This document shows, one piece after another, positions 207 to 10,148 of a stretch of 64,000 bases of DNA. Position 1 is the stretch's first letter. Each line of letters opens with the position of its first letter. The notes under the pieces are model-generated. The model saw only the letters and a list, made by a program, of their open reading frames with translations. It made no database searches and was not told where the DNA came from. A program made the translations under genes and the position numbers. The stretch comes from an uncultured bacterium (GTDB taxonomy: Bacteria; Patescibacteriota; Saccharimonadia; UBA4664), in NCBI GenBank assembly GCA_963740635.1, contig CAVUEQ010000001.1, positions 17,026 to 81,025 on the forward strand, read 5' to 3'.

Positions 207-350
207 TTAGCTTTCCCGTCAGCGGGAGCTAACTTTCGGTGCCACGGTTTCGGCCGTGAGCAACCAAAAATTTTTTTGAATGAGCGCCAAGCTCAAACGA
301 ACCCAAAGCCCCGTCTTCGGATGGGCATGCCAGCTCAACGAGCAAGCATA

Positions 351-1823
<1,473 letters not shown>

Positions 1824-2309: not shown

Positions 2310-2388
2310 AAGCGCATTATAGCATGAGAATTTGGGCGCCCCGCCACTGACGTGACGGGGCGGTAGAGCGGCTGTAACGGTGTTGCCG

Positions 2389-3063
2389 CTATGCCCTGGA
2401 GCGAACGGGGGAAGTGGCCGGAACCTTCTGAGCTGCCCCGGGGAGCGACGAGGGGAGCATGAACCCGATGACCGGAATCCAAAGGGCAAACACAAGCAGT
2501 GCGAACGGACCCACCGGGGTAACGAGGGCCACGAATAGCACGAGCGAGATCCAGCCCAGGACGGTGAGCTTGCGGGCCGGCGCCGCTAGGCGGCTGCGGC
2601 CCAACAGGCAGCAGGCGGTGGCGCCTGAAATGATGATCGCGCCCACGACAAACCCGATGGGTATAGCGTTGTTGAGCGCATTCATGGCCTCGGCTGCGGC
2701 CGGGGACATGTGATTGTGTGAACCGTCCAGCAGTGCCAGTCCGGCATACCCCCCCGTGGCTGAGGCGGCTAGGAAGACCACGCCACCGCCAAACACCACC
2801 GCCGGGAATATGCGCTGGCCGGTAATTGATACCAGTGCCCGATGTAGCACGGCGCAGAACACCATTATCGCAATGAGGAGCAGGATGATGAAATAGGTAT
2901 TCGCGATTTCGGCGCCGGTGTGGTGGCGGTAGTACGCGATGACGGTAGCGCCTGAGGCGCCATAGCCCGGCTCGTTGAGGCCTAGCCCGAACGCGTCGAT
3001 GAGGAGCAGGGCAGGGATGGCTAGGCCGATCCAGCCGAGCCGGTGGATGAGTCGCAGGTCCAT
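2389..3063 (-). CDS. Polytopic integral membrane protein, hypothetical
   Basis: 224-aa ORF with about 6 hydrophobic segments; AAGGAG Shine-Dalgarno 7 nt upstream of the ATG. Confidence 0.65.
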   Translation of the reverse strand: MDLRLIHRLGWIGLAIPALLLIDAFGLGLNEPGYGASGATVIAYYRHHTGAEIANTYFIILLLIAIMVFCAVLHRALVSITGQRIFPAVVFGGGVVFLAASATGGYAGLALLDGSHNHMSPAAAEAMNALNNAIPIGFVVGAIIISGATACCLLGRSRLAAPARKLTVLGWISLVLFVALVTPVGPFALLVFALWIPVIGFMLPSSLPGAAQKVPATSPVRSRA

Positions 3064-3268
3064 TTCTTCTCCTTGTGGGTAGTTTGGGTTTTGGGTGCGA
3101 TTTTCAAGCTAAGGCCAGAGTTAGGGCGGCATAGTAACTCCCGATTGTCAGAGGGCGGCTGGTTTTAGCTAAGGCTAGGCCTATTTACGCCTCAGTACAT
3201 CGGGTATTCCAACCAAAAAACCGGCCTGGATAGCCGTCGCGTTAAATAAGTTGTACTTGATAAATTCA

Positions 3269-3344
3269 TGGTGGAGATGACAGGAGTCGAACCTGCGACA
3301 TCCTGCTTGCAAAGCAGGCGCTCTACCAACTGAGCTACATCCCC
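3269..3344 (-). tRNA. tRNA-Ala (UGC), CCA encoded
   Basis: Sense strand ggggatgtagctcag...ttTGCaa...ggttcgactcc...tctccacca; G3:U70 Ala identity pair present. Confidence 0.95.
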
Positions 3345-3488
3345 GTATGTCGAACGGCTGCCGAGTGCGCATTGCTTCGTCAGGCCTTGCGCTTCGCACT
3401 CAGCGTACGTCTGTGTACGCTTCGTTTACGATGCTCGGCTATCCTTGTACTGCATCACTCGGCAGCCGTTCTAACCTAAATAATTACA

Positions 3489-3565
3489 ATGGTGGGCTTG
3501 GCAGGACTCGAACCTGCGACCTCGTCATTATCAGTGACGCGCTCTAACCAGCTGAGCTACAAGCC
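3489..3565 (-). tRNA. tRNA-Ile (GAU), CCA encoded
   Basis: Sense strand gggcttgtagctcagctggttagagc...ctGATaa...ggttcgagtcc...agcccacca. Confidence 0.95.
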
Positions 3566-3703
3566 CGCGGGTGGCCACGGGTACAATTAACCCTGGTATT
3601 TAAGCATAAACAGGGCATGTGGGCAAGCAGCATATTAGGCTTGCGCGGGGCGAGCGTGTGGCCGACAATAGGCGTACGAAATTATGCCAACGGGAGCCTC
3701 GGA

Positions 3704-4342
3704 ATGAAGATTACGAAACTCGGACACGCCTGCTTGCTGATCGAAGAGGACCGGGCGCGGATTTTGATTGATCCGGGGGTGTATTCGCAGGGGTTTGAGG
3801 GCATGCGTGATCTGGACGCGGTACTGTTGACGCATCAGCATCCCGACCATATCACTAAGGACAATTTGGCCAAAGTGCGGCAAAACAACCCGGGGGTGAT
3901 GGTGTATGCCGACGAGGGTACGGTGCGGATGCTGGGTGAGGGCGGCGATGCCGACGTGAAGGCGGTGCACGCCGGCGAGGAATTTGCGGTGGAGGGAGTG
4001 AAAGTCAGCGTGCACGGGACCGACCATGCCGTGATTCATCCGACGATTCCCGGGATTGAGAACGTGGGCTACATGGTAGCCGACCGGCTATTTGTGCCGG
4101 GCGATAACTTCACGCAGCCAGGCGTCCCGGTGGAGATCCTGGGGTTGCCATTGGGGGCGCCGTGGCTGAAAGTGAGCGAGGTGATCGACTACGTGATGGC
4201 GGTGAAGCCGGCGGTGGCCATACCGGTGCACGACGCGGTGCTGGCGATTCCGGAGATGAACGTAGGCATCGTGAAGCGGTTCACGGAGCCGGCCGGCATC
4301 GAGCTGCGGGTGGTGCCAAACGGTCAGACTACCGACGTGTAA
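3704..4342 (+). CDS. MBL-fold metallo-hydrolase
   Basis: HQHPDH (HxHxDH) motif and downstream His/Asp ligands. Start placed at MKITKLGHACLLIE with a GGGAG RBS; the track ORF starts further upstream at 3617. Confidence 0.85.
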   Translation: MKITKLGHACLLIEEDRARILIDPGVYSQGFEGMRDLDAVLLTHQHPDHITKDNLAKVRQNNPGVMVYADEGTVRMLGEGGDADVKAVHAGEEFAVEGVKVSVHGTDHAVIHPTIPGIENVGYMVADRLFVPGDNFTQPGVPVEILGLPLGAPWLKVSEVIDYVMAVKPAVAIPVHDAVLAIPEMNVGIVKRFTEPAGIELRVVPNGQTTDV

Positions 4343-4346
4343 TACT

Positions 4347-5230
4347 GGTTCTGTCCACTAAACCGGAACAGCCATACTCTTAAGTAATGTGAATGGGTCT
4401 CGAAATAGTTCAGGGTGGCTCCTCCGTGCCTGAAACTCCTGCAGTATGCCGGACAAGAAGCGCTTCAAGAAGCGGTCGCGGGTTCGGATGACAAACCGGT
4501 CCAGGCAGCTCCAGACATTCTCGGCCCGGTTGGTTGGCCCGAAGTGCCCCCGGTCATGGTTGCAGACGACGAGTCCGTAGCCGACGTCCTCGAGCCCCAG
4601 ATGGGAAGCGTGGGCGTCAGCATGAATGAGGCTGCCGACCTCAGCGTGACGGTCAAGGAAGCCCTCAACGGTATCTTGGGCTACATCCGGAATGACCTCT
4701 AGTCGCACTTTGTTTGTTTCCCGGTCGACCACCCCCATGACAATAGCTTGGTTGCCATATTTCTGGTGACCCAGGAAGGACTCGTCAATCTCCAGGAGGC
4801 CAGCCAATGGGTCGCCCTCACTGCGGGGCAACCGGGACCGGAGCCGTTCCAGCCACCGCTGCACCGTCGGGTAGCTGAGGCCGGTCGCCACCACAATGTC
4901 GCCTGGAGAGTGCTTGCCCTGCCAACAGATGACGAGGGCCAGGATCTTGACCCAGGACAGCTTCGAGAACCCGAATCCCAGGTTGCGCTTGAGGCTCCAT
5001 TTCCGGCGGCAGGTACCGCACCACAGGTATTTCTCCCGTACAAGTATTGTCTTGTGGCTTTGCCAAGGGCAAACCAGGCCATTGGGATATATTTCCCGGA
5101 CCACCAGCTCGACACACTCCTGGTTATCCCGGGGCAGATTTATTAAGGTATACATTGGAACAAGTCTCCTTGCTTTAAGTTATTGCCGTAACTTAAGTGT
5201 AGAACTTGTTCCGCTTTAGTTTAGAGAACC
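4347..5230 (-). mobile_element. IS1595-family (ISXO2-like) insertion sequence, copy A, 884 bp
   Basis: Imperfect terminal inverted repeats ggttctgtccactaaaccggaaca / ggttctctaaactaaagcggaaca (20 of 24). Flanked by the direct repeat TGTAATACT at 4338-4346 and 5231-5239. Single transposase ORF. Confidence 0.85.
4358..5155 (-). CDS. IS1595-family transposase (N-terminal zinc ribbon plus ISXO2-like DDE domain)
   Basis: CPW..H...CGTCRRKWS zinc ribbon, then LEIDESF..., VMGVVDRET, IHADAHASH blocks; AAGGAG RBS; paralog of 55320-56114. Confidence 0.85.
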   Translation of the reverse strand: MYTLINLPRDNQECVELVVREIYPNGLVCPWQSHKTILVREKYLWCGTCRRKWSLKRNLGFGFSKLSWVKILALVICWQGKHSPGDIVVATGLSYPTVQRWLERLRSRLPRSEGDPLAGLLEIDESFLGHQKYGNQAIVMGVVDRETNKVRLEVIPDVAQDTVEGFLDRHAEVGSLIHADAHASHLGLEDVGYGLVVCNHDRGHFGPTNRAENVWSCLDRFVIRTRDRFLKRFLSGILQEFQARRSHPELFRDPFTLLKSMAVPV

Positions 5231-5273: not shown

Positions 5274-6178
5274 GATTTAGTTACTTCGAGGGCTCATATG
5301 AGTAGACAACTAGTTTTACGCGGAGGAATCCACTAGGAACGACGTTGTCACTTCTTCATGTGAGCTCCGCTGAATCGGAAGGGTTTCGCGGAGTAGTTTT
5401 TTTGAAAACCGAAGATGAATGGGTAAGGTCTGACGCCGCAAGGCGTGAGATCTACAAACAATTTCACCATTTTTCTATTTGCCGCCGAGGTAGATAGGAA
5501 ATGGCGATTAGCAGCTGCAAACTGCTAGTCAAACATGGTTCCGGATAGTTCCTTAAGCTGTCCGGGCCAACGTAAGAAAGTTACTTAAGGGCACATGACG
5601 GATGCCTTGACGTAAGAGTACCGATGAAGGACGTAGAAGGCTGCGATAAGCCTCGGTGAGCTGCCAATCAAGCTTTGACCCGGGGATTTCCGAATGGGGC
5701 AACCCAGCCGTGGTTATACACGGTTACCACTGCCTGAATATATAGGGTAGTAGGAGGGTACGCTGTGAACTGAAACATCTAATTAGCAGCGAGGAAGAGA
5801 GAGTAAACCTCAATTCCCTAAGTAGTGGCGAGCGAAATGGGAAGAGCCAAAACTTTAATGATTTTCGCGTGTTCGCACGCGAATAAGCTGGCAGACGAAT
5901 ATCATTAAGGGGTTGTGAGATATAGATGACCAATAAAGAGCGCTTCTGGTTAAACTCAAGAGCACTCTTTATTGCGACGGATGCGCTGCCAAGGCTCCGG
6001 TAAGGTAAGAAAGTTACAAGGTGAGTGGAACAAGCCGGAATGCTTGGCCAAAGAGGGTGAAAGCCCCGTACGCGAAAATCTTTAGCCCTTATATCTGTAT
6101 TCTCGAGTAGGTCGGGACACGTGAAACCCTGACTGAATCCGGAAGGACCACCTTCCAAGGCTAAATATATCTTACGAT

Positions 6179-6209
<31 letters not shown>

Positions 6210-7649
6210 TAAAAGAACCCCGGAAGGGGAGTGAAATAGAACCTGAAATTATGTGCGTACAAGGAGTCGGAGCCGCGCTTCGGTTCGGTGACGGCGTGCT
6301 TTTTGTAGAACGATCCAGCGAGTTAATTTGCATGTGCAAGCTTAAGTCATTTGGCGGAGGCGTAGTGAAAGCGAGCCTGAATAGGGCGACATAGTACGTA
6401 GTGAATAGACCCGAAACCGGGTGACCTAACCATGGGCAGGCTGAAGCGTGGGTAAAACTGCGTGGAGGGCCGAACCGTAGCAGAATTGCAAAACGCCCGG
6501 ATGACCTGTGGTTAGCGGTGAAATGCCAATCGAACTCGGAGATAGCTGGTTCTCCTCGAAATAGCTTTAGGGCTAGCGTCGTACGGTAGCTGCTGGGGGT
6601 AGAGCTCTGTTTCGGACTGGGGCCAGTAATGGTACCCACCCTTGACAAACTACGAATACCGTCAGTGGAACTACGGCAGTCAGAACGGCGGGGCTAAGCT
6701 CGTCGCTCGAAAGGGAAACAGCCCAGACCACCATCTAAGGTCCCTAAATATATGCTAAGTGGGAAACGAGGTGGAGATTTCTTAAACAACCAGGATGTTG
6801 GCTTAGAAGCAGCCATTCATTTAAAGAGTGCGTAACAGCTCACTGGTCAAGAGATCCTGCGCGGAAAATGTAACGGGGCTAAGCATAGTACCGAAGATGG
6901 ACTGCAGCACGACTAGTCAGTAATGCGAAATTCTAAATCTAATCATTACTCGATAAAAGACGTTCTGCTCATGTGGTAGAGGAGCGTTGATATCGCGTCG
7001 AAGCTGGACTGTGAGGTCTGGTGGAGCGTTATCAAGTGAGAATGCTGGAATGAGTAACCATAAGGCAGGTGAGAATCCTGCCCACCGAAAGAGCAAGGTT
7101 TCCTGGGCCACGATAATCGTCCCAGGGTTAGTCGGTCCTAAGCCGAGGCGAGTAGCGTAGGCGATGGACAACGGGTTAATATTCCCGTACCGGTGTATGT
7201 TTGTTTGATGTGCGCGGCATGAGTAGCAGGAGCGGATTCATGGTTATATCCGTCTAAGCAGGTAGTCCGGTGCAAATCGGGTGAGACGCGAATGAAAGGC
7301 CCTAACGGGTTGATTCTAGTGAGCCAAGCTGACAAGAAAAGCTAATGGAGTTAATAGGCATAGCCGACCGTACCGCAAACCGACACAGGTGCTCAGGTCG
7401 AGTAGACCAAGGTGTACGAGTGAATCTTCGTTAAGGAACTCGGCAAACAGCGACCGTAACTTCGGGATAAGGTCTGCCTCCTTCGTGGAGGCCGCAGCAA
7501 AAGAACCCATGCGACTGTTTACCAAAAACACAGGTCTCTGCTAACACGAAAGTGGATGTATAGGGGCTGACGCCTGCCCGGTGCTGGAAGGTTAAGGGGA
7601 GGGGTTTAAGCTCTGAACTGAAGCCCCAGTGAACGGCGGCAGTAACTAT

Positions 7650-8342
7650 TGGATATCAGTAGTTGTAAAACTGGCTATATGCTGGAAACCCCGTGCCTTC
7701 AATGGCTGTAGAATCCTGCGCTAGTAATATTGCGTGTACGGTATACGTTCGGTATACTAGTAATATGACTGAAAATGCGTCAGGTGCGGAAAATCAGCAG
7801 GAAAGGCTGCAACCCATATCTATCGAACTTGGACATTACTTATCCGGCTTTGCCGATGGTGAAGGGAGTTTTAATGTTTCGGTGGTGCTGAGAAATCAGG
7901 ACTATCGTAACAAGTGGAAGATCGTAGCGAGCTTCAATGTCTCGCAGCGTGATTCGCAAATCCCTAAGCTGTTTAAGCAAGTGCTAGGATGTGGAACGAT
8001 CAGGTATCGAAAGGATGGTGTCTGTTACTTTGAAGTGCGAACGCCGACTCTCATCGACTCAGTGGTTCGAGAATTCTTCGCCCGATTCCCTTTGCGTTCG
8101 GATCGCCAATCAATGCGACTGCGCTGCCTCTTGGAGGTAGTCGATATCATGTTGAGCGGTGAGCATACGAGCGCGGATGGATTGGAGAAGATCCTCGTTA
8201 TCAGAGAGAAAATGGTAGTTAGCAGAAAGCGCAAGTACTCGATAACAGATGTGTTGCAGAATCCTCAGAGACTATACGCCGGGACCGCGTGAGCGGTATG
8301 ATATGGTCCGTTCTGCATGGCGACATGCAGCTAACACTCAAG
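7650..8342 (+). mobile_element. Group I intron inserted after E. coli U1917 (helix 69), carrying a homing endonuclease gene
   Basis: Exon junction aactat|...|aactgtcctaagg matches AACUAU|AACGGUCCUAAGG. The 5' exon ends in U and the intron ends in G. R (cctcagagactatacg) and S (gatatggtcc) core elements present. Confidence 0.85.
7765..8292 (+). CDS. LAGLIDADG homing endonuclease (single-motif, about 175 aa)
   Basis: LSGFADGEGSFNV motif; lies inside the intron. The ATG at 7765 is preferred over the track start at 7693. Confidence 0.85.
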   Translation: MTENASGAENQQERLQPISIELGHYLSGFADGEGSFNVSVVLRNQDYRNKWKIVASFNVSQRDSQIPKLFKQVLGCGTIRYRKDGVCYFEVRTPTLIDSVVREFFARFPLRSDRQSMRLRCLLEVVDIMLSGEHTSADGLEKILVIREKMVVSRKRKYSITDVLQNPQRLYAGTA

Positions 8343-8376
8343 AACTGTCCTAAGGTAGCGAAATTCCTTGTCGGGT

Positions 8377-8698
8377 GAATAACTTGCCCGAGTAATCCGT
8401 AAGGATTATGTACTGAGGAATACCAAACAGTCGACAAAAAGTTTACCAATCGTGCCAGTGCAAAACATGGCTTATATGCTGGAACATCCGAGAATGAAGC
8501 AGTACTCGCTCGAAAGAGCAGTGACAATCTGACTTCTGCGGACAATCAGCAGGGAAGGAAGGCAACTTTACGACCCTCAGAGACTACACGCCATGCCCCA
8601 CCTATGGTGGGTGATGATATAGTCCGATCTCCATGGCGACATGGAGTGCGCGCAAATCGCAGTGCAGTAACAACAAGCGATTGAAATAGATGAACATG
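8377..8698 (+). mobile_element. Group I intron inserted after E. coli U1951, ORF-less
   Basis: Junction cttgtcgggt|...|aagttctgacccgcacgaatgg. P/Q (ttctgcggacaatcagcagg), R (cctcagagactacacg) and S (gatgatatagtccg) elements. 5' exon ends in U, intron ends in G. Confidence 0.8.
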
Positions 8699-8794
8699 AA
8701 GTTCTGACCCGCACGAATGGCGTAACGATATGGGCACTGTCTCAACGAAGAGCTCGGTGAAAGTGCATAGACGGTAAAGATGCCGTCTGTCCGC

Positions 8795-8826
<32 letters not shown>

Positions 8827-8947
8827 ACAGCTTGGCATTGGGCCAGGTTATAACATGTGTAGGATAGGTGGGAGACTTTGAAGCTTTGGCGCTAGCTGAG
8901 GTGGAGCCGCCATGTGAAATACCACCCTTGTTGTAACTTTGTTCTTA

Positions 8948-9158
8948 CCAGCACCGCAATTTGCGGACAAACTAAGTTGAAGCTCGATGAAATACGTCTC
9001 TTGCGCAATAAATTCTCACTTGCCGCCACAACTGGCCGCAAGCAGACTCAGACACTGTCGTGGCCTTCGGAATTCATTGCTGCATAGAGAAGATGATCTT
9101 TTTTTCCGAGCTTCTACAAAGAAACTTCAGTTTGTTTGCCCGCAGGTTCCGGTGCTGG
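8948..9158 (+). other. About 190-nt hairpin expansion or intervening sequence in the 23S helix 78/79 region
   Basis: ccagcaccg...ccggtgctgg closes a long imperfect hairpin (gcggacaaactaagttgaagctcg / cgagcttc...cagtttgtttgcccgc) where E. coli has about 20 nt. Confidence 0.6.
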
Positions 9159-9525
9159 AACAGTGTCTGGTGGGTAGTTTAACTGGGGCGGTTGCCTCCT
9201 AAAGAGTAGCGGAGGCGTTCAAAGGTTGGCTAGGTACGGATGGAAATCGTAGTCGATAGTGTATACGCATAAGCCAGCTTGACTGTGAGGCCTACAAGCC
9301 GAGCAGGTACGAAAGTAGGAGTAAGTGATCCGCTGTCAATACATTCGTACATGAGTGTGGTATCGGCAGCGCTCAACGGATAAAAGTTACCCTGGGGATA
9401 ACAGGCTTATAGCGCCCAATAGTTCACATAGACGGCGCTGTTTGGCACCTCGATGTCGGCTCATCTCATCCTGGAGGGGGAGCACCTCCCAAGGGTCCGG
9501 CTGTTCGCCGATTAAAGAGGTACGT

Positions 9526-9559
<34 letters not shown>

Positions 9560-9957
9560 TTATATCCGCTGTGGACGTAAGGAAATTTGAGAGGATTGGC
9601 TCCTAGTACGAGAGGACCGGAGTGAACGAACCTCTGGTGTATCGATTGTTCTGCCAAGGGCATTGTCGAGTAGCTACGTTCGGTCGGGATAAGCGCTGAA
9701 AGCATATTAAGCGCGAAACTCACCTCAAGATGAGATTTCCCCATTAGACCCCAGAAAGACTATCTGGTTGATAGGCACAAGGTGTAAGCGTAGCAATACG
9801 TTTAGCCGAGGTGTACTAATCGGTCGAATGACTTTCTTGTATGTTTGACTAGCAGTTTGTGGCCACTAATATGGCCTGCACCCATCATCTTCGACACATC
9901 CGGACGCTCTGTAATAAGAGCTTCGGTATGGCACTACCAGAAAGTGGTCGTGCCATA

Positions 9958-10062
9958 CCGGTGCTTTTAGCGCGGGGGATACACTGGTTCCCATCCCGAA
10001 CACCAAAGTTAAGACCCGCTGCGGCGATGATACTCCTATGGGGGAAAGTAGCACGGTGCCGG
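9958..10062 (+). rRNA. rrf: 5S ribosomal RNA
   Basis: agcgcggggga...cccatcccgaacaccaaagttaag...gcgatgatactcc...gggaaagtagcac; helix I ccggtgc / gtgccgg. Confidence 0.8.
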
Positions 10063-10148
10063 ATTATCATAGAACTTTCGCGAAAGCGGAAGTTTTATGC
10101 GTTTTCGGCCACCGGGTTGGTTTTTGCGCTATACTTCGAATAATTGTT

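Follow-up and report, generated by a model that had tools for sequence, protein, structure and literature searches.

Predicted group I introns at L1917 and L1951 of a bacterial 23S rRNA gene, one with a LAGLIDADG endonuclease gene

The 23S rRNA gene in the window, the whole 64-kb stretch of DNA analysed here, is interrupted by two large insertions with 34 nt of rRNA between them. Sequence analysis makes it very probable that the insertions are independent group I introns, one at L1917 and one at L1951, both predicted to splice and the former predicted to encode an active endonuclease. The L1917 intron would thus be mobile, and the L1951 intron would be a derivative without a gene of its own.

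Position and boundaries of the two introns

Alignment of the gene with an E. coli 23S copy (L001 892-3794, 2903 nt) using MAFFT places the two insertions as the largest in the gene (Table 1). This E. coli copy lacks one base relative to the standard length of 2904, so that the insertions, which follow its positions 1916 and 1950, lie after the standard U1917 and U1951. The offset was verified against the H69 uridines, which lie at 1911, 1915 and 1917 in the standard E. coli 23S numbering. The positions, the sizes of 693 and 322 nt and the 34-bp exon, all proposed in an earlier note on this DNA, turned out to be exact to the base. The boundaries are unable to slide because the first and last bases of each intron are unlike the adjoining exon bases, and both 5' exons end in U and both introns in G, just as the note had read them.

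The R and S core elements that the note had recognised in both introns were located at 8265-8274 and 8300-8309 in the L1917 intron and at 8577-8586 and 8616-8625 in the L1951 intron. The combined R...S pattern occurs twice in the 64-kb window, compared with 0.00 occurrences expected from 100 shuffles. In addition, the twin layout recurs in independent assemblies (L002-L004, L126/L127, L124, L132 and L135) and is therefore not an assembly artefact.

Table 1. Features of the rRNA genes and of the two predicted introns, in window coordinates
Feature	Position	Strand	Remarks
16S rRNA gene	349-1822		Rfam
23S rRNA (host gene)	5574-9840	+	4267 nt against a 2925-position model; RF02541, 2340.6 bits, full length
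L1917 group I intron	7650-8342	+	693 nt; after U1917; last base omega-G 8342
P1, L1917 intron	7644-7664	+	CM alignment, RNAalifold, pair counts
LAGLIDADG homing endonuclease ORF	7765-8292	+	175 aa from ATG 7765; stop TGA 8290-8292
P6, L1917 intron	7807-8259	+	CUGCAAC 7807-7813 / GUUGCAG 8253-8259; ORF body inside; read from sequence
3' core, L1917 intron	8265-8330	+	R, P7, P3', P8, S, P9; CM alignment and pair counts
P7, L1917 intron	8270-8276/8302-8308	+	
P3', L1917 intron	8278-8282	+	Partner 7671-7675
P8, L1917 intron	8284-8297	+	
P9, L1917 intron	8313-8330	+	
34-nt exon	8343-8376	+	23S 1918-1951: 3' strand of H69 through part of H71
L1951 group I intron	8377-8698	+	322 nt; without ORF; after U1951; last base omega-G 8698
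P1/P10 guide region, L1951 intron	8372-8390	+	
3' core, L1951 intron	8577-8666	+	R, P7, P3', P8, S, P9, P9.1; CM alignment and pair counts
P7, L1951 intron	8582-8586/8620-8624	+	
P3', L1951 intron	8590-8595	+	Partner 8466-8471
P8, L1951 intron	about 8596-8611	+	
P9, L1951 intron	8629-8646	+	
P9.1, L1951 intron	about 8647-8666	+	
5S rRNA gene	9957-10064		Rfam
Intron-less 1917 site sequence			GGCAGTAACTAT/AACTGTCCTAAGG

Fold and covariation

The L1951 intron matches the full RF00028 model at 8367-8646 (70.8 bits, E=5.8e-16), above the gathering score of 50. Using relaxed filters, the L1917 intron is also recovered at full length (7640-8330, model 1-253), but with 23.9 bits (E=0.0012) it falls below the gathering score, a low value explained by the ~440 nt ORF-bearing P6 loop that must be absorbed by the model. 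The group I nature claimed in the earlier note is thus backed by the RF00028 match for the L1951 intron and by covariation of the fold for both.

Covariation was assessed by pair counts on hand-drawn structures including the P3/P7 pseudoknot, using 10 L1917 sequences and 5 L1951 sequences, all from one clade; the ORF-bearing P6 loop of the L1917 introns was removed by hand before alignment. For the L1917 intron, 99.6% of the cells are paired and 19 pairs have changed on both sides, against 0-3 in slid controls, in which the partners were displaced by 1-3 columns. The corresponding values for the L1951 intron are 98.5% and 27 pairs, against 1-5 in the controls. None of 500 shuffles matched the observed values, and every core helix (P3-P4-P6, P7-P3'-P8 and the P3/P7 pseudoknot) is 95-100% paired in both introns. 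RNAalifold recovered P1, P2, P2.1, P3, P4, P5, P5a, P6, P8, P9 and P9.1 of the L1951 intron de novo and, once the P6 loop was left out, P1, P4, P5, the P5 extensions, P6, P7, P8 and P9 of the L1917 intron. The U.G wobble at the splice site is invariant in all sequences of both sets (10/10 for L1917 and 5/5 for L1951). Finally, the H69 stem contains a pair bridging the 693-nt intron that shows covariation in relatives (GC:7, AU:3), as would be expected of a mature rRNA with joined exons. The maintenance of core, guide, U.G and terminal G by compensatory change points to selection on catalysis and, judged by fold and covariation, both insertions are group I introns.

The L1917 intron lacks P2, has an extended P5 and carries its ORF within the P6 loop. 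In its P1, the exon bases AACUAU and the intron bases UG (7644-7651) pair with the guide CAGUAGUU (7657-7664), placing U1917 (7649) in a wobble with G7659. P6 (helix 9) is 97% paired and includes one compensatory pair, while P8 and P3 contribute three and two, respectively, and the P7 pair 235/267 is found as UA:7, CG:2 and UG:1. P10 is weak in this intron, amounting by eye to 3-4 bp offset from the splice site.

The L1951 intron consists of P1, P2, P2.1, P3-P9 and P9.1. Its P1 pairs the exon bases CGGGU followed by GA (8372-8378) with UUGCCCG (8384-8390), and the splice-site wobble is formed by U1951 (8376) and G8386. A possible P10, read directly off the bases, would join AACUU (8381-8385) to AAGUU of the 3' exon (8699-8703). 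The ligated junction UCGGGU/AAGUU is complementary, apart from the wobble, to the guide region AACUUGCCCGA (8381-8391), which would thereby supply both P1 and P10; AACTTGCC is kept in 7/7 relatives. The guide also follows changes in the exon, as G1948 to A in the exon is matched by C to U in the guide of L1951 relatives (AU:3, GC:2), so that relatives with the exon GUCAGGU instead of GUCGGGU have the guide GCCUGA instead of GCCCGA.

The endonuclease gene of the L1917 intron

Absent from the earlier reading of this DNA was the ORF of the L1917 intron, which by its domain match and homologues is a LAGLIDADG homing endonuclease gene, intact and conserved. The protein matches Pfam PF00961 (LAGLIDADG_1) at 1e-14, with 55.7 bits against a cut-off of 23.1, and its endonuclease motif is LSGFADGEGSF. 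Among 1859 homologues, the best ~90 are 59-82% identical over the full length, and one recorded sequence, from a contig of 828,923 bp, is identical to the window enzyme. The ATG at 7765 is kept in relatives, whose proteins are 175-180 aa long, and relatives in the PDB include I-PanMI (1.5e-23), with other solved LAGLIDADG enzymes aligning as well. The contigs of the closest homologues carry the same intron at the same site, and a metagenome search with the endonuclease returned 5 loci. A related CPR enzyme at site 23IS7, I-ShaI, cleaves its insertion site (PMC11270868).

The ORF runs into the ribozyme core at both ends. Its first ~16 codons overlap the P5'/P4'/P6 5' strand and its last ~14 codons overlap P6', J6/7, P7, P3' and the P8 5' strand, with the stop codon sitting in the GUGA loop of P8. 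The L1917 intron of Synechococcus C9 is a published case of such an overlap (PMC1995217).

Proposed splicing and mobility

After transcription of the 23S gene, each ribozyme would fold independently, and its internal guide sequence would pair with the last bases of the upstream exon to place a U.G wobble at the 5' splice site, where an external guanosine would then attack. The exon released in this way would in turn attack just behind the final G of the intron. Splicing of both introns would restore a normal H69-H71 from exon 1, the 34-nt exon and exon 3. The exon bases needed are 1912-1917 (and perhaps 1922-1925) for the L1917 intron and 1947-1951 together with 1952-1956 for the L1951 intron; as these do not overlap, splicing is possible in either order. 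The L1917 intron would be mobile, its single-domain endonuclease acting as a homodimer that cuts intron-less 1917 alleles, whereupon repair would copy the intron into them. The L1951 intron is most likely a vertically inherited derivative that has lost its endonuclease gene.

Distribution among genomes

L1917 introns were sought in one genome per species by taking a non-T base followed by an intact 34-nt exon as the L1917 3' junction, and they were found at no fewer than 119 loci. The hosts include Solirubrobacterales, Gammaproteobacteria, Nitrospirota, Acidobacteriota, Bacteroidota, Dormibacteria, Aminicenantes, Thermotogaceae and several CPR groups. With at least 119 species, L1917 introns are abundant beyond the few classical bacterial examples, chiefly in metagenome-assembled soil Solirubrobacterales and Gammaproteobacteria. 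An L1951 insertion lies beside the L1917 intron at at least 37 loci and is absent from at least 75, with 7 not scorable. The likeness to the Coxiella pair drawn in the earlier note stands for the sites and the 34-nt exon, but the pair is far from unique, occurring at 37 of the 112 scorable loci among the matches listed. Likewise, the recurrent targeting of these sites or horizontal spread that the note suggested fits the data and is already the established view for these sites.

Among the matches listed, the commonest twin combines a short L1917 intron (~260-350 nt) with a long L1951 intron (~690-760 nt) and is seen at 23 loci; two long introns occur at 11 loci, and the long and short order of the window at 2. 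A terminal G is found in 109/111 L1917 introns and in all 41 L1951 insertions extracted among the matches listed. The two other L1917 introns, those of L015 and L021, end in A, which recalls the Coxiella intron reported to be without a canonical terminal G.

Within the window clade, the 1917-1951 region is an intron hot spot: relatives carry introns at 1917 and 1951 in five cases, at 1917 and 1931 in two, at 1917 alone in one and at all three sites in L133. In the latter (2379-3719), introns at L1917 (700 nt), L1931 (308 nt) and L1951 (299 nt) share a 34-nt stretch of rRNA and reduce it to exons of 14 and 20 nt. The L1951 intron of L133 is of another type than that of the window, and LAGLIDADG_2 ORFs further downstream point to more introns.

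Two classes of L1951 intron

The motif chain of the window L1951 intron (UAUGCUGGAA, AAUCAGCAGG, UCAGAGACUA and GAUAUAGUC) is that of nearly all L1917 introns. Among the matches listed, L1951 introns of this type are confined to the window clade and three Peregrinibacteria (L026, L109 and L114). The L1951 insertions of 33 other genomes among the matches listed showed no such motif chain, and their alignment to the window L1951 intron was at noise level.

These common insertions (L046 and 32 other loci, e.g., L033, L006, L028 and L025) are found in non-CPR and some CPR genomes. They are 250-280 nt long where no ORF is present and ~700 nt where a LAGLIDADG ORF is included, and carry a GATATAGTC element ~38 nt from the 3' end. 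The LAGLIDADG_1 proteins of the long L1951 insertions have 154-167 aa and are ~35% identical to the window enzyme, and the insertions are similar in size to the L1951 intron of Coxiella (720 nt, 157 aa; PMC1995217). When the 272-nt ORF-less L1951 insertion of L046 (3305-3576) was searched with RF00028, no match was obtained even at E<=1; as seen on this example, RF00028 misses the common class, and surveys based on it would under-count. Size and ORF suggest that the common class is presumably IA3, the type of Coxiella and organelles. A tentative proposal, possible though not favoured, is that the L1951 site was colonised by two unrelated ribozyme lineages, the presumed IA3 type and one with an L1917/L1931-type core plus P2 and P2.1, and that the ORF-less copy may persist by co-conversion with the L1917 endonuclease.

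Alternative explanations

The cores of the two window introns are identical over long stretches and have the A/B/R/S motif chain in common, a chain lacking from the 33 other L1951 insertions among the matches listed, and it could be speculated that the introns are recent copies, arisen by intragenic duplication or by reverse splicing of the L1917 ribozyme 34 nt downstream. Such an origin is highly improbable. Over 112 anchored core positions the two introns are 74% identical to each other, whereas identities are 80-86% between the L1951 intron and L1917 introns of unrelated phyla, and 87-95% between the L1917 intron and those of its relatives. Moreover, P2 and P2.1 are present in the L1951 intron and absent from the L1917 intron, and the same core type is found in relatives at L1931 and in 9 loci at further 23S sites, meaning that it marks a broad family and not L1917 as such. 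Intragenic duplication is rejected on the core identity of 74% together with the occurrence of the core type elsewhere; by these comparisons the two window introns belong to one broad family as separate members. It is also conceivable, but rather unlikely, that the ORF-less L1951 intron has been kept or spread by hitch-hiking, through co-conversion with L1917 homing 34 bp away. The twin layouts among the matches listed, which mostly pair one short with one long intron, would agree with this, as would the ORF-less L1931 and L1951 introns that come and go among close relatives in the window clade and the fact that both introns and the flanking H69 pair state are nearest to L002 while the conserved 23S regions are nearer to L124. 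Yet this mosaic could also arise if variable regions have changed faster in the L124 group, and vertical inheritance with losses fits equally well.

The other question is whether the insertions are spliced. They might persist as expansion segments in the mature rRNA or be excised without ligation, like intervening sequences processed by RNase III, and other insertions of that kind are present in the same 23S gene, namely at the H45 site (6926-6974) and as a long hairpin (8956-9142, z=-5.5). There is also a precedent in Simkania, where a 23S group I intron was reported as unspliced according to the title of Everett 1999 as cited in PMC11270868, and a good fold is thus not strict proof of removal. 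Nevertheless, this explanation is highly improbable, given that ribozyme cores, guides, U.G and terminal G are maintained by compensatory change and that neither insertion is a simple long hairpin typical of an intervening sequence. H69 forms the intersubunit bridge B2a, and a 693-nt insert in its loop would be hard to tolerate. Two independent introns that are both removed by splicing therefore remain the preferred reading.

Comparison with known systems

Paired 23S group I introns at these sites are already known, and the window is a further instance. The experimentally studied example is the pair of Coxiella burnetii, for which the L1917 and L1951 sites and a 34-nt exon have been reported (Raghavan 2007, by its title as cited in PMC11270868; PMC10136302) and for which skipping of the 34-nt exon has been seen (PMC10136302, citing Hicks 2011). 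Compared by way of secondary citations and not by sequence alignment, Coxiella and the window share two group I introns at the same E. coli sites, the 34-nt exon, a single-copy 23S gene and an H45 intervening sequence (PMC4990558, PMC10136302 and the reference list of PMC11270868). The parallel made in the earlier note thus holds for sites and exon but not for the endonuclease gene, as the LAGLIDADG gene of Coxiella resides in L1951 (720 nt, 157 aa; PMC1995217 Table 1) and that of the window in L1917, so that the Coxiella layout of an ORF-less L1917 intron followed by an endonuclease-bearing L1951 intron is reversed. Furthermore, the Coxiella introns are given as IB2 and IA3 in PMC10136302, whereas the two of the window share one core family, and one Coxiella intron lacks the terminal G according to a paper title, whereas both window introns have it.

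In CPR bacteria, a survey of 348 23S genes found insertions in 82%, with 45% of the insertions being group I, and counted 222 ORF-less group I introns in 23S (Tsurumaki 2024, PMC11270868). Recurrent LAGLIDADG_1 sites were designated 23IS6 (1917), 23IS7 (1931) and 23IS8 (1952) (PMC11270868), and Brown et al. 2015 were the first to note them. The window provides a further example of such group I introns, many with a single-domain LAGLIDADG_1, at exactly these sites; however, this genome and the pairing of 1917 with 1951 as such were not described in that survey, and the two L1951 classes were not separated.

The L1917 introns of Synechococcus sp. C9 and Thermotoga subterranea (Haugen et al. 2007, PMC1995217; Nesbo and Doolittle 2003) resemble that of the window in lacking P2, in having a complex P5 and in carrying in P6 an ORF that runs into P7/P3/P8. 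They measure 743 and 774 nt compared with 693 nt in the window, and their endonucleases 181 and 168 aa compared with 175 aa (PMC1995217). The Synechococcus ORF stops in P9, whereas that of the window stops in the P8 loop and its first codons also overlap P5'/P4'. Neither Synechococcus sp. C9 nor Thermotoga subterranea has an L1951 partner, in contrast to the window. Similar introns around a short exon, in that case of 23 nt, are also known from introns 2 and 3 of Twort orf142 (Landthaler and Shub 1999, via PMC10136302), and a very short exon between similar introns, in Twort as in the window, would carry a risk of exon skipping. However, the Twort introns are described in PMC10136302 as IA2 introns of a protein-coding phage gene, whereas those of the window lie in a 23S rRNA gene.

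Host, rRNA operon and other 23S insertions

In an NJ tree of the 3' third of 23S, the window and its relatives form a clade with 100% bootstrap that is sister to Gracilibacteria plus Peregrinibacteria at 60% bootstrap, while the loose cluster of all named CPR loci that contains the window clade reaches 43% or less. A CPR origin of the window, which the earlier note had taken for granted, is therefore plausible but only moderately supported.

The 16S and 23S genes lie ~3.75 kb apart. Between them, tRNA-Ala(UGC) and tRNA-Ile(GAU), the tRNAs usual for this spacer, are located on the minus strand (3269-3344 and 3490-3566), as is an ORF of 265 aa (4358-5155). The wide spacing and the opposite strand of the tRNAs indicate that the rRNA operon is rearranged or unlinked.

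Four further insertions relative to E. coli are present in the 23S gene and are probably intervening sequences or expansion segments, not introns. They comprise 187 nt near 2207 (8956-9142), the long hairpin with z=-5.5 that among relatives is shared only by L002 and L125; 150 nt near 294 (5874-6023), not unusually stable (z=-1.5); 49 nt near 1185 (6926-6974), at the H45 intervening-sequence site; and 14 nt near 2396 (9333-9346). As examined by sliding identity and quartet site patterns, the similarity of the gene to its relatives is mosaic, its introns, variable regions and H69 pair being nearest to L002 and its conserved regions (6474-7273 and 8724-9673) nearer to L124. This could reflect lateral transfer of an intron cassette with flanking exons, or merely uneven rates.

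Implications

With two introns to be removed, rRNA annotation and rRNA-based phylogeny need the spliced sequence of this gene. The L1917 intron adds an intact predicted LAGLIDADG endonuclease to a family of genome-engineering interest. For the field of intron mobility, the finding that L1917 and L1951 twins are, among the matches listed, widespread in metagenome-assembled genomes of many phyla may be of modest value, as may the presence of two structural classes at L1951, one of which would be missed entirely by RF00028.
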